Below are positions 1,759 through 28,421 of a stretch of DNA of 64,000 nucleotides, piece after piece. The position numbers and the translations under genes were made by a program. Every line of letters starts with the position of its first letter. Positions within the stretch are counted from its first letter, which is position 1. The notes beneath the pieces were generated by a model. It was not told where the DNA came from, made no database searches, and saw nothing but the letters and a program-made list of their open reading frames with translations. The DNA comes from an uncultured Chloroflexia bacterium (lineage in GTDB: Bacteria > Chloroflexota > Dehalococcoidia > Dehalococcoidales > RBG-16-60-22), in contig CAVSFE010000002.1 of assembly GCA_963727315.1 (NCBI GenBank), forward strand, positions 50,289 to 114,288, read 5' to 3'.

Positions 1759-1767
1759 TTTCGGTTC

Positions 1768-2727
1768 CTAACCCGTCCAGTTCTGTCCGATTAGAATGAC
1801 ATCAAGTACGTTAACCGTTCCATTTTCGTTGATATCTTCGGTAATCCATCCATTCGTGCCGGTCGCATTCCAGTGCTGGGTGACCGTTATTATGTCAAGT
1901 ACATTCACTTTTCCGTCGCCGTTGACATCCGTCTGGTAGACATTATTTACGGTTATGGTAATGTCCTCGGTATCATTCGCGCTGTTAGCGGATACTACGA
2001 AGTGCACGTTGTGATAGCTCCCTGCCTGACGGTAAGATGGCATCCAGGTGAATGTCTTCGTGGCGGGGTTAAAAGTTGCTCCGCTGGGCATACCGGAAGC
2101 TGAGTATGTCAAGGGGTCTCCGTCGGGGTCGTTAGCCGATACGGTGAAGGTAAGTGTTGTCCCTTCGTTGACCGTCTTATTGCCGATGTTGGCAAGTACT
2201 GGCGGTCGGTCCACATTAACGGTGCCGTTATTCACGGTTACAGGTACGGAATTGCCTGCCACGTCCCCGACGACTACATACGATAGCGTTAATGGGCAAC
2301 TGCCCCCGGCGCTCCCGGCCCTCATCGTGATGACCGCGAATGTCCCCGCCTGGGCTACCGTCTGCCCCGGACTTATTATCACCCCGAACACTCCGGTGAT
2401 GGTCCCGGCTATGTTATCTATCTGGCCGGCATTAAAGTAGGTGCTGGCGCCGCCCTGGTTCAGCAAATTTCCTTCCGTAACGTTGTCTACGGTGATAATA
2501 TTGGGATTATAACTCAGGTTAAATTGCATACCGGCGATGGCATTATTGGGCGTGACGTTTATGCCGATGGTGCACTGTTGCCCGGGGACAATGGCGCCGG
2601 CCGGGACTGAAACGCTGACAACGGCGTTGCCCGCGGCGTAGGCTAGACCGGGGAGAAGAATCACCAGAGAAATGACCAGAAAGATAGCCAGTGTTCTTAA
2701 ATATCTTAAGACATTTTTACTTCTCAT
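1768..2727 (-). CDS. Secreted cohesin + Ig/cadherin-like + dockerin protein (adaptor-scaffoldin-like)
   Basis: Signal peptide; cohesin-like AGMQFNLSYNP; Ig-like NEGTTLTFTVSANDPDGDPLTYSASGMPSGATF; C-terminal duplicated Ca-loop DVNGDGKVNVLD...DINENGTVNVLD. Confidence 0.85.
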   Translation of the reverse strand: MRSKNVLRYLRTLAIFLVISLVILLPGLAYAAGNAVVSVSVPAGAIVPGQQCTIGINVTPNNAIAGMQFNLSYNPNIITVDNVTEGNLLNQGGASTYFNAGQIDNIAGTITGVFGVIISPGQTVAQAGTFAVITMRAGSAGGSCPLTLSYVVVGDVAGNSVPVTVNNGTVNVDRPPVLANIGNKTVNEGTTLTFTVSANDPDGDPLTYSASGMPSGATFNPATKTFTWMPSYRQAGSYHNVHFVVSANSANDTEDITITVNNVYQTDVNGDGKVNVLDIITVTQHWNATGTNGWITEDINENGTVNVLDVILIGQNWTG

Positions 2728-2736
2728 TTTTCTCTC

Positions 2737-5457
2737 CTATACTGTCCAGTTCCGTACGACGGAAGCGATATCCAGTATGTTGATAATGCCGTCCTTATTG
2801 ACGTCTTCCGTAATCCAGCCATTCGCGCCGGTTTCACCCCAATGCTGGGCGATACTTATTATGTCAAGTATATTGACTATTCCATCACCGTTGATATCGG
2901 GATCTCCGATTGGCTGGTCGGAGGCTCCCGAACCGACTGGAACCAGCAGATACTTAGGGTCGTGCCAGACGAAGGGGGGTATCCCAACAAACCAGAAATA
3001 GTTGTAAGTATTGTTGTTGTTCAGCGTCAGTTTCCAAAGACCAGCTACAGGGTGGGTTATGGTGCTTTGCCCGGATGTGTTAAATAGGAAATTATGGTCT
3101 ACATTGTTAGGATCGGTGAGCCTACCGCTCATCGCCAGAATACCGTTACCTTGGAAGGTGAAATTGTCAGTTCCCGCAGGCACGTAGAAATACTGGACAT
3201 TGGCTCTATATTCCCAAGGCGCATTATAACCTACAGCATCACTCTCAACATTAAGAAGATTACCATGACCATCAGCAATTATTGAAGCAGGTCTATTGGG
3301 AACATCAATATAGACCTGTCTGTTATTTTCTGGCACGTTAGAAGTAGCATGGAGAATATAGTTGCCCGCGATGGTAGCCGTAAAGTTCACGGAAATCCAA
3401 TCCGTGACGCCATCATGGGAGTAAGTCCCGACGAGCATGTTGCCCGGGTCATACATTTGTAGATAGACATTCGGGGTCCCCTCGTATTCCACGGTCTTAA
3501 TTCTTATGGTGATGGTCTCGTTGCCGTTTGATGGTATAAGGATGTCGCGGTTGTTGCCAAAGAGCGGTGTAACGCTCGCTGTCACGTTGTCGCCGAGGGC
3601 CTGCAAGCTGATTGTCCTGGGGTTCACCCAGTCAAGACCCCAGCCGTCGCTGGCAAATTCTGTCACTCCCTCATTCAGCCAGTCCTCCGTCTCTCCCACA
3701 CTCGGCGCATTAAAGTCCTGAAGGGCATCGACTTGGCTCTTGGAATAACCCCTGCTATACAACTCTTCCCGCAGGGCATCCTCAACATAGTAATAGGCTA
3801 CCATATAGGTGTCTCGAATTTTACAGTTGAATGTGTAGAAGTCCTGAAGGTCAGAGTTGCTTAGATTATCAATCCCAATATTGTGCCATTTCCAAACATA
3901 ACGTGTGTAGTATTCCAGTTGCCTAATTCTTGCAAGAATAGCATTGTCACCAGCAGCTAGAGTCTCGGCAGACTGCAAATCTCTATACATCTTACCTAGA
4001 GAATCATTGTCGGTATTACGCTGCTCATACCAATGCTGCATGACCGTAGAAGCAGCCCCGAAAGCCTTGGTATAAAAGTCATCTAATAGGTCACTAATGC
4101 TGAGGCTTGAATCCCAATACAGTTTTGTAAGGAGGTAATACATGAGACCACCAGAACCACCCCAGCTGTCTGTACCTTCGCCAACAACAGAGACTATCCC
4201 CTTGTTGTAGCACCACTTGACGAAATTGAGGCAGTCCCAGCCTACTCCCATCATCTGACTGGTTGGAGCGTCCTCTTCGGGATACCACAGGTCTAGGTAG
4301 TCATAGACCCCGACTTTGACGCCCTTTCCAAGAAATTCATCCACCCTCTGGGTATCGGTGAGGTTGCTACAGTTGAAGCCGCGGGTTATAACGACGAAGA
4401 CATTGGGTTTGAGAGAGAATGATGGCACGGCAGATGAACCTTCATAGGCTAGGACGCCCACATATTTCCCGGGGTAATCCCCGCTTATGTTGTTGGCCAC
4501 ATAATTCACCAAGCCAAAAATGTTGTCGGTGATGTCCTGAACATCCGTCAATGGATAGAACCCGTCCATGCCGCCATCATTAGGAGATATTGGCACGACC
4601 GCAGCCCATAAGTCGTCGTTAAACTGATAACTCTTTCCTACTATGTTAGCTAAGTAATACCTTGCATAATCAACTGCCATAGCTCTTACACCAGCATTGC
4701 TACCGTCAAACTGCCAGTATGATATACCTCGTCCATTCTGCAAGAAATAACTAGGATGTGCATTATAGTAGGCTGTCTTTTGTTCGTCTGTCATCGAATA
4801 CCAACCGACGGCATGGTTAAGAATTTCACCGTAGCTATGGGATGTTGAGTAGGTCTCTGCTCCGTAGCCGCGATTATGCGTTATCCAGTTTTTAAAGGCA
4901 GTTGACCCGCCAGGGATATAAGTATCTTGCGGGCTCAAGCCTCCATATTGGCGCCAAGCGAAATCGGGTTCAACAATGATGTCTGTGCTTTCTAAAGAAG
5001 CCAAGCTATCAGGAACCACCGTCCAGGCGCTATTTTTAAAGAACCATCGCACACCAAGCTTTTCATCAAGCAGGTAATAAGCCCCCCATCTTACCGCTAT
5101 AGCCGTCTTGCCTGTAATTGTAATCCCATTACTATCAATAACAAGACGAAAAGCCTCATCGCCATGATTGGCCAACATGGCAGGATTAACCGTTAGATTG
5201 ATAGATGGGGGTGTTGGAGTAGATGTAACCACCGTCCATGAACGTCCCGACATTTTCTCTAGGTATGTCTCAAGCTCACTGGCTGCCGTTTCCAGGAAGG
5301 GATTATCAACGTCTTCTTGGGCAGGATTATAATAAATGGTATTGATGGCGTCCCAGCCCACCCCATTATCAGCTCTGGCAGTAGGAATTTTCATAAATGA
5401 TGGGCTAATTGTGAATAACATCATAAATATAATGAACAGACTGGCTATCTGCCTCAT
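2737..5457 (-). CDS. Secreted glycoside-hydrolase-like protein (GH20/GH67 N-terminal-like + DUF4838-like) with C-terminal dockerin
   Basis: Likely start ATG 5457 (AAGGAG RBS, signal peptide MRQIASLFIIFMMLF); AASELETYLEKMSG...EAFRL...GAYYLLDEKLGVRWF...PDFAWR; C-terminal DINGDGIVNILD...DVNKDGIINILD. Confidence 0.75.
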   Translation of the reverse strand: MRQIASLFIIFMMLFTISPSFMKIPTARADNGVGWDAINTIYYNPAQEDVDNPFLETAASELETYLEKMSGRSWTVVTSTPTPPSINLTVNPAMLANHGDEAFRLVIDSNGITITGKTAIAVRWGAYYLLDEKLGVRWFFKNSAWTVVPDSLASLESTDIIVEPDFAWRQYGGLSPQDTYIPGGSTAFKNWITHNRGYGAETYSTSHSYGEILNHAVGWYSMTDEQKTAYYNAHPSYFLQNGRGISYWQFDGSNAGVRAMAVDYARYYLANIVGKSYQFNDDLWAAVVPISPNDGGMDGFYPLTDVQDITDNIFGLVNYVANNISGDYPGKYVGVLAYEGSSAVPSFSLKPNVFVVITRGFNCSNLTDTQRVDEFLGKGVKVGVYDYLDLWYPEEDAPTSQMMGVGWDCLNFVKWCYNKGIVSVVGEGTDSWGGSGGLMYYLLTKLYWDSSLSISDLLDDFYTKAFGAASTVMQHWYEQRNTDNDSLGKMYRDLQSAETLAAGDNAILARIRQLEYYTRYVWKWHNIGIDNLSNSDLQDFYTFNCKIRDTYMVAYYYVEDALREELYSRGYSKSQVDALQDFNAPSVGETEDWLNEGVTEFASDGWGLDWVNPRTISLQALGDNVTASVTPLFGNNRDILIPSNGNETITIRIKTVEYEGTPNVYLQMYDPGNMLVGTYSHDGVTDWISVNFTATIAGNYILHATSNVPENNRQVYIDVPNRPASIIADGHGNLLNVESDAVGYNAPWEYRANVQYFYVPAGTDNFTFQGNGILAMSGRLTDPNNVDHNFLFNTSGQSTITHPVAGLWKLTLNNNNTYNYFWFVGIPPFVWHDPKYLLVPVGSGASDQPIGDPDINGDGIVNILDIISIAQHWGETGANGWITEDVNKDGIINILDIASVVRNWTV

Positions 5458-5835
5458 GAATAGCCATTCTCCTTGTAGGATCGTGTTTGATTTCACCTTT
5501 ATGGCTTGATTATCCTCGGGCATATGCTCCCTTTTAACAAAGTGAACTTCATACAATCAAATCCATCATTGACAAAGATCATGACGGAACCCATAAAACT
5601 AATATAACATCAGATGGAACTTAAAAAAATAGCCTATTGGTAACAGAGAAAGGAGTCATATCAAGATGCATTGTGTGCTAATTTGAGTTAGAATGGAGGA
5701 TGGTAAAGGCCTAATTAGATTGAGTAAGAAGAGAGGTATTTATGGTTATTCATATAGACGTTAGTCCTAGTTCTCTCTAATTACCGGGATAGTTTACCAT
5801 TAAAAATTTCTGCCGGATATAGTATATACTACGTT

Positions 5836-14780: not shown

Positions 14781-17279
14781 TTAATACTTCCTTTCCGCTA
14801 ACACGTTTTCTACATTTTCTTTCGGGTTCACCTCGTATAGTATAAAGCCTTCCACGTGTGCCCCTACGGATTCCAGGGCCTGCTTGCTTTCTCTCGCCAG
14901 ATCAATTCTCGAGACATCCGGTTTAAGGACTAAAAGTACGCTGTCAGCTTCTTTAGCCAGAATCTTGGTATCCGTCCATCCCATTACCGGGGCGCTGTCC
15001 ACGATGATAACGTCGTAGTCTTGCCGGTATTTCGCCAGCAGTGTCTTGAAACGAGGCGAAGAAAAAAGCTCCCTGGACTGAGCCGATGTAACCCCGGCTG
15101 GAAGGATATCAACGCCTTCGACCTTGGCTACATAGCTTTTCTCTTCGTCTCCGCGTGTCATTATCCCGGACAGACCCTCCGATTTAATCAGGCTGAATAG
15201 AGCAGCAATACTAGGATGGCGCAGGTTGCCGTCAATAAGCAAGACCTTCCGACCCTGCAAAGCCACCGCCCGCGCCAGGTTGGCAGCGACTATCGTTTTA
15301 CCCTCGCCCGCCACGGGGCTGGTGACCAAGAGCACTTTACCATGGGCGGAGTCCAGTCCCAGGTTGGTGCGTAACAGCCGAAAAGATTCCAGATACTGGG
15401 GTATTCCCTTATCAAGCACCGAAGGGCTAAGCCGGCTACCTTTCTTCACTACGGCGATGCTGGCAAGCAGGGGAAGCTCTATTTGGCTCTTCACCTGCGA
15501 TGCACTCCGCACGGTGCGGTCATAATACTGAAAGATGAGGATGCCTAATATGCTCAAGAGCAGACCGGCGATGATAGCCAGAATGACACTCTTATAGCGA
15601 GTAAAAAAACCGCCTGTAGCCGAAACCACCGATGTATCCACAATCCTGGTACTGCTGAAATCGCTCGATAGTAAGGCTATCTGGAGTTGCTGTCGCAAGG
15701 TATCCAGGGCATTATAGCTGGCTGTATCGCCTCCGCTTTGGGAAATGACAGCAATCGCATCTCCAAGCCCGCTGAGGGCGTTATTGGCCACATTCAATGA
15801 TTCCTGGACTCCCAGTAAATTCGTGCTTGTCTGAACATCGAGCCCGGCAGACTGTATTTCGTCGAGTTCGGATAAAAAGGAACTCAGTCTTATCTCTGCC
15901 GCGCGAGCATTTATTTCCATGACCAGAAGTTGTTCTTGAGTCAGGAGAACATCCGTATTGGGTGTCGAGGGCGTTTGCTTGAGCTGTGCTGCAATTTCCT
16001 GCAGGGTCGCGGTAAACTGAACTATCCGATCATTAAATTCCTTGAGTCTCCATTGCATAATCGTAGGTAATCTCGGCAATATCTGTTCTACCTCTGTCGT
16101 CGCGGTGTTCAGGCTGTCGATGAGCACTGAATTGTTCTGCATGATGCGTTGCAGCGCGTTGACGTCTGCTTCCTTTAGTTGCTCTTGCTGCGCCGTCGTT
16201 TCTTCCGCTGATATGACCGCCGACATGTACTGCGCTTGAATGTCATAGAGAGAGACTATTTGCTCCAGTATCACTCCCCCGAAAGCTGCCGCTACCTGTA
16301 GCTGCTTCACAGTTGTAATCAGTTCCTGGTTAACGATAGGGTCGGTTTCAGCTTGCTGTAAAGTTGTTACATAGGCAATCAGACTGTCCAGTTTCATCAT
16401 CAGTGCCCGTATGCGCACTTCAATTACAGCAATGACGGAGCTGCGCTCCGAGTAGTTGCCTACGGAGGATACCGGTTTCAGGCCCGTGATAAGGTCGTTA
16501 ATAGCGCTTCCTTCCGATGTCAGCTCACTCATCCAGCTACTGACGACACTCAGTTGTGAAGCCGTCAACATTGTACCGGCGTCTACTGGAGCTGGTTCGG
16601 CGGCTTCTCCTCCTCCTATCGGCTGCAGGCGTTGGGAAGCTGCTTCTAGTGCAGACAGAGTGATATCTATCTGGGCTGTTAGTTTTGGCACACTGGGGTT
16701 GATCGTGATATCAACGCCGCTTTTCTGCAATTCTTCCAGCCTCTGGTTGGTATCAACCAGCGCACTCTGGATCGTCGCTTCGGTGGTTTGCTTGACTTCG
16801 TTAATATAGGCTTCGGCTACGGCATTTGCCTGCTGCTGGGCCACGAGCGGGTCTGTAGAGGTCACTGTTAAATTCACCAGGTTCGTGCTTCCCACTTCCT
16901 CGATATCGATGGCGGACTGTAGCCGGCGTACTTCCACTTGGAGATAATCAGGATCAGCGGACTTTTCCGGTTCGAGTTTGGTGATGGCCTGCTCCAACAC
17001 ACCTTGACTTTTCATCACCTCGATCTGACTCCCGATGTCCTGGAGATAGGTCAATCCGAGCACTCCCTGAAGTCCCGAAGGCACCGCCGCAAGACTCTGC
17101 TCGGTGTTTCCCATTATGACCGTCGTTTTTGCTTTTTGAAGTGTGGGGTTTGCACCGTTAAGTGCCCAGGCTGTTCCTCCGGCCACCACGCATACCAGAA
17201 TGATTATCCATAGGTGCCGCCAGATACCCTTCAGTTGTTGTGTCAGGTTAGATTGTTGTTCCATAACAGTATTAGTCAA
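14781..17279 (-). CDS. Wzc-like polysaccharide co-polymerase / BY-kinase-domain protein
   Basis: Wzz-type N-terminal TM, long helical loop, second TM, ESFRLLRTNL, Walker A SPVAGEGKT, LLIDGNLRHP, IIVDSAP. Confidence 0.85.
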   Translation of the reverse strand: MTNTVMEQQSNLTQQLKGIWRHLWIIILVCVVAGGTAWALNGANPTLQKAKTTVIMGNTEQSLAAVPSGLQGVLGLTYLQDIGSQIEVMKSQGVLEQAITKLEPEKSADPDYLQVEVRRLQSAIDIEEVGSTNLVNLTVTSTDPLVAQQQANAVAEAYINEVKQTTEATIQSALVDTNQRLEELQKSGVDITINPSVPKLTAQIDITLSALEAASQRLQPIGGGEAAEPAPVDAGTMLTASQLSVVSSWMSELTSEGSAINDLITGLKPVSSVGNYSERSSVIAVIEVRIRALMMKLDSLIAYVTTLQQAETDPIVNQELITTVKQLQVAAAFGGVILEQIVSLYDIQAQYMSAVISAEETTAQQEQLKEADVNALQRIMQNNSVLIDSLNTATTEVEQILPRLPTIMQWRLKEFNDRIVQFTATLQEIAAQLKQTPSTPNTDVLLTQEQLLVMEINARAAEIRLSSFLSELDEIQSAGLDVQTSTNLLGVQESLNVANNALSGLGDAIAVISQSGGDTASYNALDTLRQQLQIALLSSDFSSTRIVDTSVVSATGGFFTRYKSVILAIIAGLLLSILGILIFQYYDRTVRSASQVKSQIELPLLASIAVVKKGSRLSPSVLDKGIPQYLESFRLLRTNLGLDSAHGKVLLVTSPVAGEGKTIVAANLARAVALQGRKVLLIDGNLRHPSIAALFSLIKSEGLSGIMTRGDEEKSYVAKVEGVDILPAGVTSAQSRELFSSPRFKTLLAKYRQDYDVIIVDSAPVMGWTDTKILAKEADSVLLVLKPDVSRIDLARESKQALESVGAHVEGFILYEVNPKENVENVLAERKY

Positions 17280-17613: not shown

Positions 17614-18981
17614 ATGATTGCAAGGAGTACTGCGGCTCGAAAGGCAGGCAAAGTCCTTGTAGTCAACTATGACTATGAGATAAGCCGAATCCTCGAAGTA
17701 AATCTGGCCCACGCCAATCTTGAGGTAGTCCTGGCTGAAAGTGGCGCCGAAGCGCTGGAAATAATTCGCCGTGATAAAGCAGATATCATTATCGTCGACC
17801 AGGAGCTCCTTGATATGGAATCCAGTGATATTTTCCGCCATATCAAAGAGTTGTCCGGCGATATCCCCGTTATCCTTATCGGCAGCCCGTCGCAAAAAAT
17901 ATATACTCCCGCGAAAGCATATGAAATCGCCGTAAGCTATATTGCCAAGCCTTTCGACCCCCAGGAAGTGGTGGCACTAGTACAGGGACACCTGATGCAT
18001 AAAGAGCGAACGATGAATATCAATCCGCCAGCGGGACTGCCGGAACGGGCCCGGGTCAGCAAAGAAACCGCCGCTAAAAAATGGCGGAGCGGTCTGCCGG
18101 ATGTCGATTCTATCCAGACTGCGATGGAGATAAGCCGGAAGGAAGCAAGAGAAGCACTCAAGAGCGTTCAGCTCATCGTCGCCTCGCTTGTGGAGACCGT
18201 GCCGCCTGCGCTAAAGGATTCCTTCGACCGGCTCGCTGGCGACGTCCAGGAACTGGCGGTCCTCTGCAACCGTTCGCTTTATCTGGTCCACACCTTCAAC
18301 AGCCGGCTGGAGATGCAGCAGGAGCGGTTATTACAGCAGGAATCGGAGCAGCGGGCCACATCCGAGGCTGTCCTGACCATCTGCCGGCATATTACCAGGT
18401 CCATGAAGGTCGAACGTATTTTTGACCTGAAAAGCTCCAAACGGGTCGTTAAATATACCCTGGCCATAGCTAAAGAGTTAGGAATATCTGATGTTGAACA
18501 ACGGACACTCTATCATGCCGCCCTGATCAAAGATATCGCCTTGGCGTTTTCACCACTCGATATTATCGAACGAACAGCATTGATCGGTCACGAGATAGCC
18601 GTGGCGGTGAAAGAGCGCCTTAATCTCATGTGGAAGGCGCTGGCCGCCATTCCCTTTTTGGTGCCAGCCTGTAATTTACTTCTTTATCGATATGAAAGAT
18701 ACAATGGTACAGGCGGTACCTTTGGTCTCAAGGGTACCGATATCCCGCTGGGTTCGCGCATACTGGCGGTGGCTGACGCCTTCGATTCTCTTGCTTATAC
18801 CCGGTCGCTGGAGGAGGAAATAGCCTCAAGGCTGGCGGTACCGCAAATCACCGCAGAGTCAGGGTCGTCTTTTGACCCTCAGGTAGTCAATGCTTTATCA
18901 AAATTATGGAAGAGGAACGAGCTGGAGTTTGTCTTTACCGAAAACAAAGGAGAGATAGGACTTGGCAATGCCCAGGAATAA
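17614..18981 (+). CDS. Receiver-domain protein with degenerate HD-GYP domain
   Basis: REC fold (IIIVDQEL, YIAKPF); C-terminal IPLGSRILAVADAFD and FDPQVV, but HD and GYP motifs altered. Confidence 0.8.
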   Translation: MIARSTAARKAGKVLVVNYDYEISRILEVNLAHANLEVVLAESGAEALEIIRRDKADIIIVDQELLDMESSDIFRHIKELSGDIPVILIGSPSQKIYTPAKAYEIAVSYIAKPFDPQEVVALVQGHLMHKERTMNINPPAGLPERARVSKETAAKKWRSGLPDVDSIQTAMEISRKEAREALKSVQLIVASLVETVPPALKDSFDRLAGDVQELAVLCNRSLYLVHTFNSRLEMQQERLLQQESEQRATSEAVLTICRHITRSMKVERIFDLKSSKRVVKYTLAIAKELGISDVEQRTLYHAALIKDIALAFSPLDIIERTALIGHEIAVAVKERLNLMWKALAAIPFLVPACNLLLYRYERYNGTGGTFGLKGTDIPLGSRILAVADAFDSLAYTRSLEEEIASRLAVPQITAESGSSFDPQVVNALSKLWKRNELEFVFTENKGEIGLGNAQE

Positions 18982-21338: not shown

Positions 21339-22860
21339 TTAGGAGGCGCTCTGGCCTTTTAGTTTGAGGAAGACCTTGTTGTAGCTTTCGACTACCTTCC
21401 GGAAGTGGAAACCCGAGAGCGACAGCCCCAGCGATATGGGGAGTTTGCGGGGACGTTTCAGGAGGGTCGTGAATACCAGCCTCCAGAAATAACTCTTCCC
21501 TTTGTCCACGAATCCCAGGACCCAGAGGGCCCTCAAAAAACCAGTAACATGAGATAAACGCAGTTTCGATATCCCCGCCGTCTTCCGGGGCCGGTATTCC
21601 TTCAGGAAGGTGACGACACGCTCGTAATAGTGGCGCGGCGAGTAAATGGTGTCCAGCACGTTTTTATAGCCCGTCATGAGTGTTTCGTATTGCATCTTGG
21701 GCACGAAGTTCATCGAAAAATCGGTATTGTCCCCGGTGAAATTATTCAGTCAGCCGGTTTTCTTTCTTAAGCCGCTTGTAGAGTTTTGTCCCCTTGGGGG
21801 CATTGAGCAGGCCGACCATGGCCGTGACGATGCCGCTCTTTTGGATAAATTGTATCTGTTTGCTGAAAATTGAGGCCGGGTCGCTGTCGAAGCCGAGGAT
21901 AAAGCCACCCATTACCTCGAAGCCATGGTGCTGGATTGTCTTTACCGCGGCGGCCAGGTCGCGGTTCCTGTTTTGCACCTTATTACACTCCACCAGGCTG
22001 TCTTCATGCGGCGTTTCGATGCCGATAAAGACCCGGTTAAAACCCGCTTGAGCCATCAACTCCATCAGTTCCTCGTCGTCGGCCATATTGATAGATGCTT
22101 CCGTGAAGAACAGGAAAGGATACTTTTTCTCCTTTGACCATGCAATCATCGCCGGTAAGGTCTCGGCTTTTAGTTTCTTTTTATTGCCGATGAAATTATC
22201 ATCGACGATGAACAGACTGCCCCGCCAGCCGCGGCGGTACAGCGCATCCAGCTCGTCCATCATCTGCTGACTATCCTTGGTCCTGGGGCGGTGGCCGTTA
22301 AGCACGATAATATCGCAAAAGTCGCAGTCGAAGGGGCAGCCGCGGGAGTACTGCAAGCTCATCGCCGAGTAGTGATTCATATTGATGAGCGGCCACATCG
22401 GGATGGGCGTTCGACTGATGTCGGGTCGCTCATCGGACGAATAGACGCGTTGTGCGTGCCCTCTGGCCAGGTCGCTTAAAAACTGCGGGAGCGTGACTTC
22501 GGCCTCACCCAGCACGAAGTGGTCGACTCCTTCGAACTCTTCGCAGCCGGTGGTGAAAAGAGGGCCGCCAGCTACCACCCTGGTCTTCAATCGGTTACAG
22601 CGGGCGATGACTTCCCTAGCTGATTCCTTCTGCACAACCATCGCGCTGAGGAAGACGTAATCGGCCCATTTGATATTTTCGTCGCTCAGGGAGCTTACAT
22701 TTAAGTCCACCAGCCTTTTCTCCCATTCGTCGGGTAGCATGGCCGCCACCGTCAGTAACCCCAGCGGTGGGAAATTGGCTTTTTTAGAAACGAACTTCAG
22801 CGCGTGCCGGAAGCTCCAGAAGGTATCGGGGTACCGGGGATAGACAAATAGTATTTTCAT
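21339..22860 (-). CDS. B12-binding radical SAM protein (DUF4070-type C-terminus), split by a +1 insertion near 21750
   Basis: PPLGLLTVAA B12 domain, SRGCPFDCDFC; deleting one base gives continuous ENRLLNNFTGDNTDFSMNFVPK joining ORFs 21742-22860 and 21339-21713. Confidence 0.85.
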
Positions 22861-22944: not shown

Positions 22945-23328
22945 CTAACGCGCTTTGTTAATCAAGCTTAAGGCTTTTATCGTCTTCAGATAGTCATCTT
23001 TAATATCAAAATACACAGTGTCTTCGGCATGCTGGGTATCTCGGGGAAAACAATTAATAACTGATGCCTTTCTACCGGCCAGAACTTTAGCCTTGGCTTC
23101 TTCTACCCAGACCTTCCTCGTGGCTACCCAGAAATAATCCCTGTCTTCTTTATGGACCCAGGCGAAGACACCCATTTCACCAAGAATATCGGATTTAAAT
23201 TTGTTTAAATTATAGGTACGTTCATTGGCCTTAGAGTAGTGACAGCCGATGTCACCAGCCAGTTTTTTAACGAAGTCCTCGTCTTGCTCGTCGAATTCCA
23301 TTGTCCGTCTTGGTTTTTTTACTAGCAT
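22945..23328 (-). CDS. Hypothetical protein
   Basis: Open frame with plausible RBS before ATG 23328 (MLVKKPRR); no recognised motif. Confidence 0.55.
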   Translation of the reverse strand: MLVKKPRRTMEFDEQDEDFVKKLAGDIGCHYSKANERTYNLNKFKSDILGEMGVFAWVHKEDRDYFWVATRKVWVEEAKAKVLAGRKASVINCFPRDTQHAEDTVYFDIKDDYLKTIKALSLINKAR

Positions 23329-23421
23329 GAAGGACCCCCTTCCCGGTAAATCCCTTCTGGCGGAAATGTGCACGGACTGGATATCCGCCACCCCGTGCAC
23401 ATTTCACTAACGAGAGCAAAT

Positions 23422-23751
23422 TTATCGGCTTACTCTTACTTTACGGTAGCAATCGCTACAATAGACCGGCCTACCTTGACGGGGCTCGAAGGGTACTGAA
23501 GTTGACTTACCGCAATCGGCGCATACTGCCGGGTACATTTGGCGCCCGGGAGTGTAGCTGTTGTAGCTGCTATTTCCGTAGCTGTTACCACCGTTTCCAT
23601 AACGCTCTGCTTTCCTCGCCTGGCGGCATTCGGGGCAGCGCTTGGGCTGATTGGTATAGCCTCTTGACTGGAATTGCTCCTGTTCCGCGACACTGAAGAT
23701 AAAAGTCTTATTGCAATCGGAACATTCTAGGGTTTTTTCCTGAAAGCTCAT
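23422..23751 (-). CDS. Zinc-ribbon / CxxC-x17-CxxC domain protein
   Basis: CSDC...PKRCPECR and CADC...VPFEP...VYCSDCY; GAGGAGG RBS. Confidence 0.9.
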   Translation of the reverse strand: MSFQEKTLECSDCNKTFIFSVAEQEQFQSRGYTNQPKRCPECRQARKAERYGNGGNSYGNSSYNSYTPGRQMYPAVCADCGKSTSVPFEPRQGRPVYCSDCYRKVRVSR

Positions 23752-23864: not shown

Positions 23865-23893
23865 ATGATACAATAAAGTTATTCTATTGTCAA
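23865..23893 (-). promoter_or_regulatory. Sigma70-like promoter of zinc-ribbon gene
   Basis: Minus strand TTGACA (23893-23888)-17 bp-TATCAT (23870-23865). Confidence 0.65.
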
Positions 23894-23924
23894 ATGAAGC
23901 CTCCCTAGTTAGGGAGGCTTCATT
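23893..23924. terminator. Strong hairpin, probable terminator of kinase-PqqD-peptide operon
   Basis: Perfect 15-bp inverted repeat AATGAAGCCTCCCTA-gt-TAGGGAGGCTTCATT. Confidence 0.7.
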
Positions 23925-24031: not shown

Positions 24032-24127
24032 TTACTCTCTGAAGCCGCTGCCGTGGTTGCCACAGAGCACTTCGGCTTTAAGGATTTCGGACTTTACCGT
24101 AGGTTTCACATATGGTTCTTTTGCCAT
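24032..24127 (-). CDS. Putative RRE-dependent precursor peptide, 31 aa (MAKEPYVKPTVKSEILKAEVLCGNHGSGFRE)
   Basis: GGGGAGGT RBS 6 nt before ATG 24127; YxxP leader motif; directly downstream of PqqD gene; below ORF-track cutoff. Confidence 0.75.
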   Translation of the reverse strand: MAKEPYVKPTVKSEILKAEVLCGNHGSGFRE

Positions 24128-24184
24128 AACATTACCTCCCCGGACACATAATTATTGGATTTTGCCCGGTTCTTCGACCTTTCC

Positions 24185-24454
24185 TTAAATATATTTTATA
24201 ATGCCCGCCTTTGTCAAGTTCTCGATTGTCTCCCTCGTGTCCGCGCGGGCTTCCTCAAGAGAAACATCGAAGCGGTCAAAGAGACTCGCCGCTATCTCAT
24301 CGATGCTGCGTTTGCCATCGCACATTTCCCAGATAAGGGTAGCTGTTTTATTCAATATGTGCGTCGATAGCCCGTCGTCCTTGATGACCACGACTTCATC
24401 GCCGATGCGGCGCCAGATAATGTCTTCAGCCTTTATCATTTTATCCGCCATCAT
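24185..24454 (-). CDS. PqqD-family RiPP recognition element (RRE)
   Basis: WRRIGDEVVVI...LNKTATLIWEMCDGKRSIDEIAASLFDRFDVS...L...GII; likely start ATG 24454. Confidence 0.92.
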   Translation of the reverse strand: MMADKMIKAEDIIWRRIGDEVVVIKDDGLSTHILNKTATLIWEMCDGKRSIDEIAASLFDRFDVSLEEARADTRETIENLTKAGIIKYI

Positions 24455-24474
24455 CTCTACTCCCTGCCAGCCTT

Positions 24475-25449
24475 TCACTTTTCCAACTCTCCCACGACCT
24501 GCCAGAGTGACTTCTCGTCCAGATTAAACTCGAGTTCATAGACCGGGACGGCTTTGGTCACCTCGTCGCTGAATTCAGACATAATCAAAAGCACCGCCCG
24601 TTTATCTTTCTGGCCGATACAGGCCGGCGTTATAATCTGTCGCATGAATCTTAAATATGTCTCCGTCCTGTCCAGGTTACGCACCAGGGTCTCACTGCCT
24701 TTTTTAAGCAGGAAGATGCAGCGTAAAGGTGCCTTCAAGTACCGTCGCGAGGAGACTCTCCCGAGAAAAGGGGCGCTCTCCACGTTAAGGCCGTTTCCGT
24801 TCTGTTTGGGGCGAGAGACCAGCAACATTTCGTCGTTGATTACCTCTCCGTCGCGTTTCCGGCAAAGGCGGGCGATGGTCGTTTTACCGGCTTCACTGGG
24901 ACCGGCAAATAACAGCGCCTGTCCCGAGCGCAGGATGCCGCAGGCGTGGACTATCATGGCCGGGGGATGACCGTCGTATTTCATCTTACACGCCGAGTAA
25001 TAGGCCAGCGCTAACAGCTGATTAATGCGATTGCCCTCCATGTCCGGGTTGGCGAGGCCTCTTTCGCCGGTAATTTTAATGTAACCGCGCGTCAGGTCGT
25101 ACTTACCGGAGACCACCTGGCTCGTCGACCTGAACAAATTTTCCTCATGAACGTAGTTGTTATCAGGCAGGGCTGCATATAAATCGTCCGGGCTCAAGCG
25201 GTCGGTCCCTTCCAGCTCTATGGTAATATCGGCCGGTTCTTTTGTAAGGAAACCATGGCACAACCGTTTTAGCTTCATCAGCTCCTTATAGTCTTCGGCA
25301 TCCCGGCACTTGAAGGCGCAGCCAACGCTGCCCATCCGCAGGCTAAAAGCATTTTTAAAGGGCAGCGCCCCTTCTCGTGCTTGTTCCTGCGGACTGACCG
25401 TTGCTGTCAGCGTCCGCTCGCCAGCGTTATTAACTGACATATATTTCAC
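24475..25449 (-). CDS. HPr-kinase-related P-loop protein
   Basis: VHACGI...LFAGPSEAGKTT...INDEMLLV...PFLG...PVYELEF pattern typical of HprK-related kinases. Confidence 0.8.
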   Translation of the reverse strand: MKYMSVNNAGERTLTATVSPQEQAREGALPFKNAFSLRMGSVGCAFKCRDAEDYKELMKLKRLCHGFLTKEPADITIELEGTDRLSPDDLYAALPDNNYVHEENLFRSTSQVVSGKYDLTRGYIKITGERGLANPDMEGNRINQLLALAYYSACKMKYDGHPPAMIVHACGILRSGQALLFAGPSEAGKTTIARLCRKRDGEVINDEMLLVSRPKQNGNGLNVESAPFLGRVSSRRYLKAPLRCIFLLKKGSETLVRNLDRTETYLRFMRQIITPACIGQKDKRAVLLIMSEFSDEVTKAVPVYELEFNLDEKSLWQVVGELEK

Positions 25450-25469
25450 TCGCCAAGTATCCTGTTTTT

Positions 25470-25526
25470 ATCATAATATGGCTTTTGTTGGTTATTGGTA
25501 AACGAAGCGTTAGAAAGTGGTAGGAA
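25470..25526 (-). promoter_or_regulatory. Degenerate four-repeat array plus -10 upstream of kinase-PqqD-peptide operon
   Basis: Plus-strand GTTGGTT 25487, GTAAACG 25498, GTTAGAA 25509, GTAGGAA 25520 (11-bp period); minus-strand TATGAT 25475-25470, 11 bp from the last repeat. Confidence 0.55.
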
Positions 25527-25643
25527 TTAGCGGTTGCCTAAAATTTATCATTTATTTATACCAATCATAACAAAATTTGCGGGTTGTTTACTACCGTTTT
25601 TTTATGATGTTGCTTAGCAACATAGTTATAGAGGAGACAGGAT

Positions 25644-25913
25644 ATGTTACTTCGTGATGAGATAATGCCGATGCTGACCATAAAGGATGTCGCCCGTCTC
25701 TTGCACATCCACGTCAATACCGCCCGGCGCTGGAGCGACCAGGGCATATTGAAATCTTATCGTATTACCCGGCGTGGCGACCGCCGGTTCCGGCAGGAAG
25801 ATATCGCCCGTTTTCTGGCGGAATACAACGATTTCAATACCAAGAAAGAACCCGACCGGGAGACCACCCAGGGTTCCGCCAACGACAAGGGTAAGATAGT
25901 TATCGGGCACTAA
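25644..25913 (+). CDS. Small excisionase/MerR-like helix-turn-helix DNA-binding protein
   Basis: MLTIKDVARLLHIHVNTARRWSDQGILKSYRI...GDRRFRQEDI; GAGGAG RBS. Confidence 0.88.
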   Translation: MLLRDEIMPMLTIKDVARLLHIHVNTARRWSDQGILKSYRITRRGDRRFRQEDIARFLAEYNDFNTKKEPDRETTQGSANDKGKIVIGH

Positions 25914-25964
25914 AGACAGACAATCGTATACTACCCATTCTTTTTCCGTTCGTCCGTTTCGGCC

Positions 25965-26771
25965 CTAATACTGTATCAGACTGCCTTCCGCCTTGGCGCG
26001 CCTCAGAGCTTTTCTAAAAACGAGGAAGGCCAGAGGCGTTAACACCAGAGCGAATCCCAGCAGGATCAGGATATCGTTGCGAACTTCGAATATCGAGTAT
26101 CCCTTAAGCATGGCCAGTCTCATGGCATCCAGGGAGTAGGTCATCGGCAGGACATGGGATAACGGCGTGAGCCAGCCAGGGAGCACTGATATAGGATAGT
26201 ACACGCCAGCCAGGAGCGTTGATACCCCTCCGAATATCCAGGCAATCGGGTCGCCTTTTTTTACCACCAGCACAATGGCCGCCGAAAGGATGCCGATGCC
26301 GCTGAAGCTGGCCACGGACAGTATTAGGACGATGAAGGCCGTCAAGAAATTCGCCTGACTTATATTGAATCCGAAGACCAGTCCCCCGAAAAGAAAATAT
26401 GCCACCACGTTCAACGTGGTCAGCAAATAGTCCCACAACGACGATGAGAATAGTATAGCGCTCAACCGGGTCGGGCTGAGGAGCATAATCTCCAGCGTGC
26501 CGGTCATCTGACCGTCGCGGATGCTCGAGGCGAAGCTGGAGAGGGACAAACCCAGGTAACCGTTAAAAGCCAGGCCGATGAGGACAAAGGAGAAATAATC
26601 GCCCCCGTATTGCTCAAGCTGGGGCACCAGGGCGTTGCCGAAAAGCCGCGAGAGGAAATAGAAGGAAGCTACCCCGAAGAAGATGCCGAGTATCTCGAGC
26701 AAAAAGGCGATGCGATAGCTCAGCGCGATCGAAAAATCACGTTTTAAGAAAGCCGTCGCGGTAGACATCAC
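25965..26771 (-). CDS. ABC-2 type exporter permease
   Basis: Six hydrophobic segments; GTLEIMLLSP; GVYYPISVLPGWL...LPMTY. Confidence 0.9.
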   Translation of the reverse strand: MMSTATAFLKRDFSIALSYRIAFLLEILGIFFGVASFYFLSRLFGNALVPQLEQYGGDYFSFVLIGLAFNGYLGLSLSSFASSIRDGQMTGTLEIMLLSPTRLSAILFSSSLWDYLLTTLNVVAYFLFGGLVFGFNISQANFLTAFIVLILSVASFSGIGILSAAIVLVVKKGDPIAWIFGGVSTLLAGVYYPISVLPGWLTPLSHVLPMTYSLDAMRLAMLKGYSIFEVRNDILILLGFALVLTPLAFLVFRKALRRAKAEGSLIQY

Positions 26772-27778
26772 TCCTTTTCCTTCTGTCCGCTTTTCAGGGC
26801 ATTAGTGAATATTTCTTCGAGCGGCAGCTCTTTCAATTCACAGTTATATACCTCGGCGCCGTTGTTGATTATTATCTGCAGCAGGCGGGGCAGCACCTGC
26901 TCACGGTTGGTTATCTTCAGCTCCAGCGTCGGTCCCTCTTTGCCGTTCCTGGTCAGGGTGCAGCCGAGCACGCCTTCGACCTGTTCGAGCTGGGCGAGGA
27001 CGGCCTCGGGGAAATTCCTCACCTGCAGGCGGCATTCTTCGTGGGTCTGGAAGACGGAGCGCAGTTCTTTCACCGAACCGAGGGCAATTACCCGCCCGCG
27101 GTCCATGATTGCCAGTCGGTCACAGAGCTGTTCCGCCTCGGTGAGGTTGTGGGTGGCCAGCACTATCGTCTTTTTTTCGACCACCACCTTTTCCTTGAGG
27201 AAGGAACGGACCGACTGCGCGCTGACAGGGTCGAGGCTTCGGGTGGGTTCATCCACGAAAAGGACCTTCGGTTCACTGAGCAGGCCCCGGATAATCGCCA
27301 TTTTTTGCCGCATCCCGGTGGAGTAGTTCTGGAACCTGATGTCGGCTTCTTTGTCCAGCCCCACCACGTTTAACAGCTCATTAATATGCTGGCGACTCTG
27401 CTGCCGCGGAAGGTGATAAAGGGACGCGTAAAATTGCAGGTTCTCACGGCCGGTGAGGCGCCAGTAAAAACTCCTCTCCTCGGCGTTGATTAACCCGACT
27501 AGGTTTTTTACGGCCTGTTCTTTTTTCAGGATGTCGTTACCGTAGACGCTGGCTGTGCCTGAAGTGGGCAACACGAGACAGCATAGCAGTTTGATTAAAG
27601 TGGTCTTACCGGCGCCGTTAGGCCCCAGCAGGCCGAAAAATTCGCCCGGCTGTATATCCAGGGTCACTTTTTCTACAGCCGTGACCCATTGTTTCTTTCT
27701 GAAGGGTAACAGTTCGCGGTAGCCAGAGCTACGGGCGAATCTTTTCGTCAATTCGTTGGTACTGATGGCCGTGGTCAC
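26768..27778 (-). CDS. ABC exporter ATP-binding subunit
   Basis: GPNGAGKTT, YSTGMRQK, VDEPT; likely GTG start 27778 overlapping peptidase stop (GTGA). Confidence 0.92.
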   Translation of the reverse strand: MTTAISTNELTKRFARSSGYRELLPFRKKQWVTAVEKVTLDIQPGEFFGLLGPNGAGKTTLIKLLCCLVLPTSGTASVYGNDILKKEQAVKNLVGLINAEERSFYWRLTGRENLQFYASLYHLPRQQSRQHINELLNVVGLDKEADIRFQNYSTGMRQKMAIIRGLLSEPKVLFVDEPTRSLDPVSAQSVRSFLKEKVVVEKKTIVLATHNLTEAEQLCDRLAIMDRGRVIALGSVKELRSVFQTHEECRLQVRNFPEAVLAQLEQVEGVLGCTLTRNGKEGPTLELKITNREQVLPRLLQIIINNGAEVYNCELKELPLEEIFTNALKSGQKEKE

Positions 27779-28281
27779 TTTATCCGCCTCCCCCCACAAA
27801 GCCACCCGAGTCTATCGATATATCTTACTACCCTTATCTGGTTGGGATAACGGCCCCGAGCGAACCAGGCGGTCAGCCGGCCGTAAACGCGTCCTGACCA
27901 TCCATTGAGCTTTAGCTTTCTCTCGTTTTCCTCGATTAAAATGACCCGGCCCATGACCTGCGTGTCGTTTACCGGCGGGTCGATATTTTTCATAGCGTCG
28001 CCTTTGGTTATCAACACTTTACCGTCCTTCCGGCTGTTTATTTTTACCAGTCGGTGGGCCGTCAAAGAGCCGTCCGGCCGCCGATAGAAAATAATGTCCC
28101 CTATGCCCACCGAACGGCCGTTCCGCGCCTCGACAATTATTACATCCCCGTTTTTTATGAAGGGGTACATGCTGTTGCCGTGGGCCTGAAAGCGCAGCCG
28201 GGCGCCGCGGTCGAGCACTTCTTGGCTCAACTCTAGAAAATCCGCCTTGTCGGTATTCAATTCTTTGTCCGGCATTTTCAC
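27775..28281 (-). CDS. S24/S26-family (signal peptidase I-like) peptidase without N-terminal membrane anchor
   Basis: GNSMYPFIKNGD catalytic Ser, GDIIFY, AHRLV, ITKGD, VMGRV. Confidence 0.85.
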   Translation of the reverse strand: MKMPDKELNTDKADFLELSQEVLDRGARLRFQAHGNSMYPFIKNGDVIIVEARNGRSVGIGDIIFYRRPDGSLTAHRLVKINSRKDGKVLITKGDAMKNIDPPVNDTQVMGRVILIEENERKLKLNGWSGRVYGRLTAWFARGRYPNQIRVVRYIDRLGWLCGGRRIK

Positions 28282-28365: not shown

Positions 28366-28421
28366 AGTTTACCCGCTGCACGTTAGTTATCAGTAAACAA
28401 ATGGTGAGAATTTGGTTATAA
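28366..28421 (-). promoter_or_regulatory. Four-repeat array plus -10 upstream of peptidase-ABC operon
   Basis: Plus-strand GTTAGTT 28382, GTAAACA 28393, GTGAGAA 28404, GTTATAA 28415; minus-strand TAAACT 28371-28366, 10 bp from the last repeat. Confidence 0.6.

Follow-up and report, generated by a model that had tools for sequence, protein, structure and literature searches.

Genes and features of the cassette

We analysed a 64-kb stretch of DNA from an uncultured Chloroflexia bacterium of the Dehalococcoidales (assembly GCA_963727315.1, contig CAVSFE010000002.1), hereafter the window. It corresponds to G000:C2:50289-114288 of a source genome of 1.95 Mb in 4 contigs that is 92.6% complete and whose closest public relatives are Dehalococcoidales/Dehalococcoidaceae metagenome-assembled genomes. 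Seven genes lie within 24032-28281 (window coordinates, used throughout) and form a cassette for a putative ribosomally synthesised and post-translationally modified peptide (RiPP). Comparison with known systems suggests that the cassette is related to the pathways of linear phosphorylated peptides (LPPs) in Bacilli.

Two operons run on the minus strand. The first begins with the gene of a soluble archaeal-type signal peptidase I homologue, a putative LppS-like leader peptidase (27775-28281; 168 amino acids (aa)). It continues with a DrrA-like ATPase of an ATP-binding cassette (ABC) exporter (26768-27805; 345 aa by its longest open reading frame (ORF), with GTG at 27778 as a possible alternative start) and an ABC-2 type permease (25965-26771; 268 aa; PF01061). 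The second operon encodes an HprK-like P-loop protein with a Pfam ScmC assignment, homologous to LppK (24475-25449; 324 aa, or 321 aa from the ATG at 25440), a discrete PqqD-family RiPP recognition element (RRE; 24185-24478; 97 aa; PF05402) and a precursor peptide of 31 aa, MAKEPYVKPTVKSEILKAEVLCGNHGSGFRE (24032-24127), with a YxxPxV leader and Gly26-Ser27. Divergent from the kinase operon, on the plus strand at 25644-25913, is the gene of a small helix-turn-helix (HTH) protein (HTH_17/MerR-like; PF12728, TIGR01764). The longest ORFs of the peptidase and the ATPase overlap by 31 nt, which the GTG at 27778 would reduce to 4 nt; overlaps of 4 nt also join ATPase to permease and kinase to PqqD. 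All genes named in an initial annotation of this DNA were recovered at their positions, and the coupling of the peptidase gene to the ABC genes that it had described agrees with either overlap. Its placement of the whole cassette on the minus strand holds for the peptidase, ABC pair, kinase, PqqD and peptide genes and fails for the HTH gene, which it had not named.

Related loci were taken from genomes and from metagenomes (27 metagenome loci) and are referred to by number. The cassette genes evolve under purifying selection: relative to locus L011, ratios of nonsynonymous to synonymous substitution (dN/dS) were 0.05-0.18 for all of them and 0.075 for the flanking UDP-glucose dehydrogenases, with dS near saturation.

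The precursor peptide and its relatives

The 31-aa ORF is preceded, 7 nt upstream, by a GGGGAGG Shine-Dalgarno sequence. Its leader reads Tyr6-x-x-Pro9-x-Val11, it has one Cys (Cys22) and its C-terminal residue is Glu. It evolves as coding sequence (pN 0.21-0.29 vs pS 0.71-0.89) and is single-copy in the source genome. Homologues lie directly after the PqqD gene in L012, L013 and L014, and a hidden Markov model (HMM) of the precursor found such a gene immediately behind PqqD in 20 of the 27 metagenome loci; the remainder are mostly contigs that stop at this point.

Across 8 diverse precursors, Y6, P9, E14, L21, G26 and S27 are invariant. A larger set comprised 26 related peptides, from which the exact duplicates L087 and L090 were left out and in which L077 and L078 represented L013 and L014. 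Here the Tyr, the Pro and the Gly-Ser motif are kept, and the tails that follow Gly-Ser vary, with Gly, Pro, Trp and Cys abundant in them. By the rule of our script, Ser falls at Y+20/21 in 24 of the 26 (or 25, counting L069 by its second Gly-Ser) and one peptide has Thr at Y+22; the conserved Ser of the window peptide is at Y+21. The initial annotation had pointed to phosphorylation of a C-terminal Ser in the manner of paeninodin. This does not fit the peptide: it ends in Glu, a C-terminal Ser is absent from all 26 related precursors, and the conserved Ser is internal, as in LppA. A longer core hidden by a frameshift was ruled out, as three-frame translation past the stop codon gave no Gly/Cys-rich remnant.

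Two related loci have several precursor genes. At L083:2137-2545, three stand in tandem (31, 31 and 42 aa), and the two 31-aa precursors have 6 residues after Gly-Ser. At L012:1402-3162, two precursor genes flank that of a DUF362-like Fe-S protein of 404 aa (Npun_F2552 family at 174 bits, under the cut-off), and the precursor tails are near-pure Gly runs ending in Cys or Trp.

The kinase, the recognition element, the peptidase and the exporter

The HprK-like protein had no family match in our local Pfam search, which did not include PF27840, and its NCBIfam scores were weak (ScmC TIGR04249, 21.7 bits against a cut-off of 125; HprK_rel_B, 17.1 bits against 200). The protein and its homologues carry the precomputed Pfam assignment PF27840, whose name 'ScmC' we took from the Atlas entry of P0109, a homologue 53% identical to the window kinase. 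Conserved residues include the P-loop (G183/G188/K189/T191), H168 and N205-D206-E207. Searched against PDB sequences, the kinase profile gave generic P-loop matches only. The protein is predicted from its sequence to be a peptide Ser kinase. The family is large, with 2802 representatives at E<=1e-3 and 28 at E<=1e-30 in an exhaustive search, and patchy within the class: at E<=1e-10 it occurs in 4 of 401 Dehalococcoidia genomes, the source genome included, where it is single-copy. Among the Atlas clusters around P0109, ScmC-type kinases occur fused to Peptidase_S24 (Bacteroidota), Radical_SAM (Aminicenantota) and PqqD (Bacillota). These fusions are consistent with kinase, peptidase, radical S-adenosylmethionine (SAM) and PqqD proteins working together.

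The PqqD protein matched PF05402 at 57.1 bits and its gene is the only PqqD gene in the source genome. As a single sequence it matched nothing among PDB sequences. The RRE profile matched solved chains of TbiB1 (8e-13), PbaB1 (3e-8) and LppB (3.5e-7), and PqqD proper at 6e-4. The family keeps N43 throughout and D80 with a conservation of at least 90%, at positions that correspond in the alignment to N33 and D70 of LppB (chain 9x8z_B). In LppB, according to the available part of Popov et al. (PMC13381572), the YxxP motif is held by these two residues at its Pro kink and its Tyr, and they are needed for binding.

The peptidase meets the archaeal-type signal peptidase I family (TIGR02228, 61 bits; cut-off 51.85) and matches PF00717 at 38 bits. 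Its highest 19-residue Kyte-Doolittle mean was 0.96, compared with 2.81 for the permease, indicating that it has no hydrophobic segment. Ser37, His76, Asp95 and Asp101 are invariant in an alignment with 8 Bacilli LppS proteins, confirming the soluble enzyme with Ser and His motifs described initially. The S-39-H-25-D spacing equals that of the LppS residues S29/H68/D93, blastp against LppS gave E 5e-22 at 30% identity, and the LppS of L039 scores 61.2 bits with TIGR02228. SipW and archaeal-type signal peptidase I (TIGR02228, NF046067) share the catalytic Ser-His(-Asp) motifs, and the window protein passes the TIGR02228 cut-off. It differs from them in having no membrane anchor, in scoring 34.4 of the 190 needed for SipW, and in standing in a RiPP cassette rather than a secretion context. 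The peptidase and RRE genes are 3.3 kb apart, in paired operons.

The exporter ATPase matched PF00005 at 97.6 bits, DrrA1-3_C at 27.9 bits and the drrA subfamily at 257 bits, below its cut-off of 312; it is 78% identical in L011, with dN/dS of 0.08. The permease matched PF01061 at 60.6 bits, has 50 hydrophobic windows and is 88% identical in L011.

Comparison with linear phosphorylated peptides

Popov et al. (Nat Commun 2026; PMC13381572) define LPP clusters, lppA-K-B-S-D-N, in Bacilli, where they lie within capsule loci. As set out in the available part of that paper, no cyclase and no radical SAM enzyme is required in this class. The HprK-like kinase LppK places several phosphates on core Ser3, and the leader peptidase LppS, a SipW-like signal peptidase I (SpI) with S29/H68/D93, needs the RRE in order to cleave. 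LppD is an MsbA-like fused pump, LppN, a nucleotidyltransferase (NTP transferase), had no detectable activity in a heterologous host, and the leader motif is YxxPxVLxHQxIxFETxxS. The same text describes LPPs as restricted to Bacillota, where they are the linear counterparts of phosphorylated lasso peptides, and mentions neither radical SAM enzymes nor Chloroflexi.

For comparison, we scanned genome contigs with the published leader motif, which gave 48 Bacilli loci, all from Bacillota; many of the 8-kb stretches are truncated on one side. Gene order in them was A-K-B-S-D-N, as published (PMC13381572). HMMs built from the window families had matches in 34 of the 48 loci for the kinase (57-82 bits; E 1e-16 to 5e-24), in 40 for the RRE and in 31 for the peptidase, and phmmer with the NTP_transf_5 protein of the source genome matched 24 of the 48. 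Pairwise, the E values were 1e-15 for the kinase (25% identity), 1e-8 for the RRE, 5e-22 for the peptidase and 1e-17 for the nucleotidyltransferase, at identities of 22-30%. LppK, LppB, LppS and LppN also carry the same NCBIfam signature as the corresponding window proteins. The two systems thus share an enzyme set: an SpI-like Ser/His/Asp leader peptidase, a discrete YxxP-binding RRE, a kinase resembling HprK, an NTP transferase and an ABC exporter. Four of these enzymes are detectably homologous, no cyclase is present in either, and both are set in polysaccharide loci. The window precursor, likewise, combines YxxPxV with a conserved Ser a short way past the leader. Of 46 Bacilli LppA ORFs, 42 have Ser and the other 4 Cys at Y+18, and this Ser is the phosphorylated Ser3 (PMC13381572, available part).

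The systems also differ. The window host belongs to Chloroflexota and the LPP hosts to Bacillota; the window has two operons and a divergent HTH gene, whereas the Bacilli have one A-K-B-S-D-N operon; the window leader lacks the L-x-HQ-x-I-x-FET part; and the core of LppA, at 45 aa, is much longer than that of the window peptide. The window kinase falls in a clade separate from LppK: in a quick tree with SH-aLRT (approximate likelihood-ratio test) support only and long-branch warnings, 13 LppK proteins form a clade of their own (SH-aLRT 100) that excludes it.

Some of the Bacilli loci depart from the published pattern. Cys replaces Ser at the phospho-acceptor position Y+18 in L023, L030, L034 and one further locus. 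Six of the 48 (L029, L037, L045, L053, L059 and L063) have a precursor, an NTP transferase and an RRE and gave no kinase or peptidase match within their 8 kb; the precursors of L029 and L037 are 43-44 aa. These loci may represent a second LPP-like layout.

Enzymes outside the cassette

A search for the lasso B2 protease (PF13471, Transglut_core3) found none in the source genome at its 92.6% completeness. The only strong Asn-synthase homologue in the genome is an XrtA/PEP-CTERM-type amidotransferase (TIGR03108, 554 bits; it also meets asn_synth_AEB). For want of a B2 protease, and with an Asn-synthase homologue that is itself an exopolysaccharide (EPS) amidotransferase, a lasso peptide reading was rejected.

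No SPASM enzyme is encoded in the window, and no radical SAM/SPASM gene is linked to the cassette in the assembled genome. Genome-wide, there were two SPASM matches, one being MftC and the other an unlinked enzyme 560 kb away (G000:C2:634 kb). The initial statement that cyclase and radical SAM-SPASM enzymes are absent is thus upheld at the scale of the assembled genome. The mycofactocin maturase MftC lies at G000:C2:956409-957437 (L007:781-1809; 364 bits against a cut-off of 265); MftB was not picked up by our Pfam PqqD search of the genome.

At a distance of 1.2 kb downstream, the cassette is followed by a radical SAM gene of B12-binding, non-SPASM type (21339-22860, minus strand). It is frameshifted near 21740-21797, which splits it into ORFs of 372 and 124 aa, and the intact 506-aa protein of L011 aligns to it in two frames. 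The gene is intact (506 aa) in both L011 and L076, in the same synteny beside UDP-glucose dehydrogenase. As a modifying enzyme it was rejected: it is frameshifted here, is found only in the synteny shared by the window, L011 and L076, and is absent from other relatives.

The sole NTP_transf_5 gene of the genome (PF14907, 194 bits) lies 367 bp before the window start, ~25 kb upstream of the kinase gene and at the outer end of the same EPS locus, in line with the initial suggestion that missing enzymes could lie outside the window. In L013, L014 and L077 an NTP_transf_5 gene adjoins the cassette. The family occurs in all 4 kinase-holding Dehalococcoidia genomes and in 39 of 401 overall; these four genomes are kin, and the co-occurrence is only suggestive.

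Candidate regulatory features of the two operons

The sequence GTTTAC-N2-ATAAC-N-AAC precedes both operons. On the minus strand, GTTTACCAATAACCAAC (25487-25503) lies 5' of the kinase operon, where it overlaps a -35-like hexamer, and GTTTACTGATAACTAAC (28382-28398) lies 5' of the peptidase/ABC operon. The pattern GTTTACNNATAACNAAC has 2 matches in the window at up to 2 mismatches, against 0.23 expected, a circular comparison since the pattern was derived from the same two sites. Independent support comes from related loci: L011 has the motif at both corresponding positions and L012 has it 5' of the kinase gene, which bears out the two operons with a common motif proposed initially. No third copy was found in the 64-kb window, so that the motif is specific to the cassette there.

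Inside the 3' end of the PqqD gene, directly before the precursor gene, is a promoter-like site (24188-24217, minus strand; TTGACA, 18-nt spacer, TATATT; 11/12 matches, by consensus scan only). A G+C-rich hairpin 3' of the precursor gene (23893-23924) probably closes the kinase-PqqD-precursor operon; in the scan it was called on the plus strand, its T run on the minus strand is short, and it is listed without a strand. The divergent HTH protein is a candidate regulator of the cassette. It matched PF12728 at 49.9 bits and TIGR01764 at 31 bits, above the cut-off of 28.8, and its gene occupies the same place in L011, L013, L014, L072, L074, L077, L078, L080, L082 and L083.

Relation to other known systems

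The SynChlorMet (SCM) cassette comprises ScmC (TIGR04249/PF27840), ScmD (TIGR04248) and the radical SAM/SPASM enzymes ScmE and ScmF (TIGR04250/04251). The window shares with it HprK-related and PqqD-family proteins, its kinase carries the precomputed Pfam ScmC assignment, and its relatives L013 and L016-L019 add radical SAM/SPASM enzymes, as SCM does. However, the window has no radical SAM/SPASM gene, its proteins fall below the NCBIfam cut-offs (ScmC 21.7 of 125, ScmD 28.4 of 100), and the radical SAM enzymes of the relatives fall below those of ScmE/F. The resemblance to SynChlorMet noted initially therefore holds at the superfamily level, through PF27840 'ScmC', and does not extend to the NCBIfam Scm families.

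The HPr-rel-A system (HprK-related kinases A/B, TIGR04352/04355, with PqqD_rel_X TIGR04353) is linked to exosortase/EPS loci. It likewise places an HprK-related protein and a PqqD-family chaperone near XrtA/PEP-CTERM-style EPS genes. The comparison with HprK-related families proposed in the initial annotation put the window proteins below all HPr-rel-A cut-offs (HprK_rel_B 17.1 of 200, PqqD_rel_X 29.3 of 35, no match to HprK_rel_A).

The lasso peptides paeninodin and pseudomycoidin are tailored by an HPr-kinase homologue that acts on a linear, RRE-recognised precursor. The phosphate can be extended by a nucleotidyltransferase, which in pseudomycoidin adds hexoses to the kinase-installed phosphate, and the B1-type RRE binds a YxxP-like leader (PMC8498205, available part). 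The window genome differs from these systems in lacking B2 protease and lasso cyclase, and its leader peptidase is of the serine SpI type, not a cysteine B2 enzyme. Because the peptide ends in Glu, its acceptor cannot be a C-terminal Ser.

In a literature search, 'SynChlorMet', 'HPr-rel-A' and 'NTP_transf_5' did not occur and 'PF14907' occurred once, in a phosphonate paper. Among the matches listed, 'HprK-related kinase' was absent and LPP terms were found only in PMC13381572. The RRE-Finder paper (PMC7470986) and a 2025 RRE paper (PMC12710340) mention neither kinase nor HPr.

Genomic setting and layouts in related loci

The cassette is embedded in a ~45-kb EPS locus, in which two UDP-glucose dehydrogenase genes flank it. 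Also encoded there are a flippase, GT4 glycosyltransferases, a priming transferase, an amidotransferase, an exosortase-A-type acyl-CoA ligase and a Wzz/BY-kinase. In the window, L011/L072, L074 and L076, the order is peptidase, ABC, ABC, HTH, kinase, PqqD and precursor, and the DNA available for them encodes no SPASM enzyme. The precursor spot of L011 is a run of 100 N, and L072, of near-identical layout, has the peptide. The architecture without radical SAM enzyme thus recurs in the relatives L011, L072, L074 and L076. L013/L077 read PqqD2, radical SAM/SPASM, precursor, second HprK-like gene, peptidase, ABC, ABC, NTP_transf_5, HTH, kinase, PqqD and precursor; L014/L078 match this without the radical SAM and second kinase genes. 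In L016, L017, L018 and L085-L087, kinase and PqqD lie directly beside a radical SAM/SPASM gene and a precursor gene.

Several further genes of the window were recorded. Between the precursor and radical SAM genes are those of a treble-clef zinc-finger protein (23422-23751, minus strand; CxxC-x17-CxxC; TIGR04272, 71.6 bits) and of a 151-aa protein without family (22945-23400, minus strand); both are absent from the corresponding position in L076. The EPS locus also encodes a response regulator that carries a fused HD_5 domain of HD-GYP type (17614-18981, plus strand), and its gene adjoins that of a Wzz/BY-kinase-like protein of 832 aa (14781-17279, minus strand). At the edge of the EPS locus (1-5556, minus strand), three large proteins have cohesin, dockerin, CARDB and Ig-like domains together with DUF4838/GH20b, a cellulosome-style module architecture in a Dehalococcoidales genome.

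Weighing the possible interpretations

Judged from sequence comparison, the cassette is most probably a distant variant of the LPP class, outside the Bacilli clade, and not a new class. The initial annotation had taken it for an uncharacterised class, an assignment that has to be given up, as the LPP class has this enzyme set without cyclase or radical SAM enzyme (PMC13381572, available part). It had also envisaged a characterised class with its core enzyme encoded elsewhere. This turned out to be partly so: the cassette maps onto LPP, and the NTP_transf_5 gene lies outside the window. The idea of a short peptide that is exported, is probably phosphorylated and is tied to EPS genes stands, with LPP as its precedent. 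By analogy, we consider it probable, with appreciable room for doubt, that the locus encodes an LPP-type RiPP pathway within a Dehalococcoidales EPS locus, yielding an exported Ser-phosphorylated linear peptide.

A number of observations weigh against this. The RRE profile scores the lasso B1 protein TbiB1 above LppB. Compared by HMM and blastp with 46 LppA ORFs, the precursor showed no similarity beyond YxxPxV, and its family places the Ser at Y+20/21 rather than at the Y+18 of Bacilli, 2-3 residues off. The exporter is a two-gene ABC-2 system, whereas the LppD of L039 is MsbA-like (428 bits), and the NTP transferase gene is unlinked to the cassette, ~25 kb off. In the kinase tree, the window protein groups (SH-aLRT 99) with Dehalococcoidia kinases that include radical SAM/SPASM-adjacent ones. 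Finally, the window tail, G-F-R-E, is with 4 residues the shortest of the 26 precursors, its nearest relatives having 14-24 after the conserved Gly-Ser, which may mean that the peptide is truncated. The main doubt concerns this unusual shortness, which could mark either a functional minimal product or a truncated one.

The tail and the kinase tree, which nests the window among radical SAM-linked kinases, would also suit a decaying remnant of a SynChlorMet-like radical SAM/SPASM cassette that has lost its maturase, suffered truncation of its tail and makes no useful product. Radical SAM/SPASM genes stand beside kinase-PqqD in L016, L017, L018 and L085-L087 and 5 kb off in L013 and L077, with Cys-rich tails; L014 retains a second PqqD without its radical SAM gene; and the adjacent B12-radical SAM gene is frameshifted. 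Decay is nonetheless hard to reconcile with six ORFs that are all intact and full length, dN/dS of 0.05-0.18, retained catalytic and binding residues and a promoter motif kept in relatives. The same layout without radical SAM enzyme, precursor included, is found in L072, L074 and L076, and L083, from another lineage, has two 31-aa precursors with equally short tails. We therefore regard a remnant as unlikely. We give still less credence, and in fact very little, to a radical SAM-dependent RiPP whose maturase lies elsewhere in the genome or in the unassembled 7%, leaving the cassette as its tailoring and export half. The genome, at 92.6% complete, does have one radical SAM/SPASM gene without allotted pathway (G000:C2:634 kb) and the peptide does retain one Cys (Cys22). 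However, the enzyme at 634 kb is only 34% identical over 134 aa to cassette-linked maturases, and the genes around it encode DUF2807 and zinc-ribbon proteins and neither a PqqD protein nor a precursor, so that it is unsupported as a distant partner. The other SPASM protein is MftC, the genome has only one PqqD and one precursor copy, and LPP shows the enzyme set working without any radical SAM enzyme (PMC13381572, available part).

A different possibility is that the peptide is a carrier and not an end product: once Ser27 is phosphorylated, the nucleotidyltransferase and EPS glycosyltransferases would build a phosphoglycan on it, and the ABC-2 system would export a peptide-anchored glycoconjugate. 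The interleaving of cassette and EPS genes in the window, L011, L015/L084, L019, L072 and L076 would suit such a role, as would an exporter of ABC-2 type, the broad type of polysaccharide exporters, with a weak KpsM match (E 0.0024). So would the hexoses added in pseudomycoidin (PMC8498205, available part) and, in the available part of PMC13381572, the placement of LPP and paeninodin clusters in capsule loci and the joint rise of lppB with an EPS gene. Yet no such conjugate is known, LppN was without detectable activity in a heterologous host (PMC13381572, available part), and DrrAB-like ABC-2 pumps export small molecules and peptides too. L013 and L014, moreover, lie outside EPS loci, as judged from ORF translations alone, with no family search of their flanks. 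We consider a carrier function improbable.

A proposed pathway and its significance

Our preferred reading remains the LPP-type pathway. The genes, their homology to four LPP core proteins, the conservation of the leader, of the Ser register and of the residues for catalysis and binding, and the purifying selection were computed here; the biochemical steps that follow are drawn by homology with LppA, LppK, LppB and LppS. The 31-aa precursor would be made from the operon promoter and possibly from its own promoter as well. Its Tyr6-x-x-Pro9-x-Val11 leader motif would be held by the discrete PqqD-type RRE, and the bound peptide presented to the HprK-like kinase for phosphorylation of Ser27 in Gly-Ser, perhaps more than once. 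The soluble Ser/His signal-peptidase-like enzyme would then remove the leader by a cut between Leu21 and Ser27, and the two-gene ABC-2 transporter would export the short product. The NTP_transf_5 nucleotidyltransferase, encoded 25 kb upstream in the same EPS locus, may further decorate the phosphate. Both operons are probably regulated together through the divergent HTH protein and the promoter motif that they share.

A broader and more speculative extension, to which we attach little probability, is that kinase, RRE and peptidase, with or without the nucleotidyltransferase, are an old portable toolkit, coupled to lasso cyclases in Bacilli and to radical SAM/SPASM enzymes in many uncultured phyla and standing alone here. 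Phospho-Ser27 would then be an attachment point for a sugar-phosphate or glycan made from nucleotide sugars of the EPS locus, and the glycoconjugate, anchored on the ribosomal peptide and exported by the ABC-2 pump, would take part in slime-layer assembly or control it.

With the window locus and its relatives, the four-enzyme LPP toolkit extends to Chloroflexota. One kinase clade spans a natural series from versions partnered by radical SAM/SPASM enzymes to versions without a partner. This series would tie the unstudied SynChlorMet-type cassettes to known chemistry, namely polyphosphorylation of Ser and RRE-guided cleavage by a signal-peptidase-like enzyme, and the 31-aa precursor offers a very small, easily synthesised substrate. 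The repeated placement of such clusters in polysaccharide loci of unrelated phyla sharpens the question of what role these peptides may have in capsule or biofilm formation.

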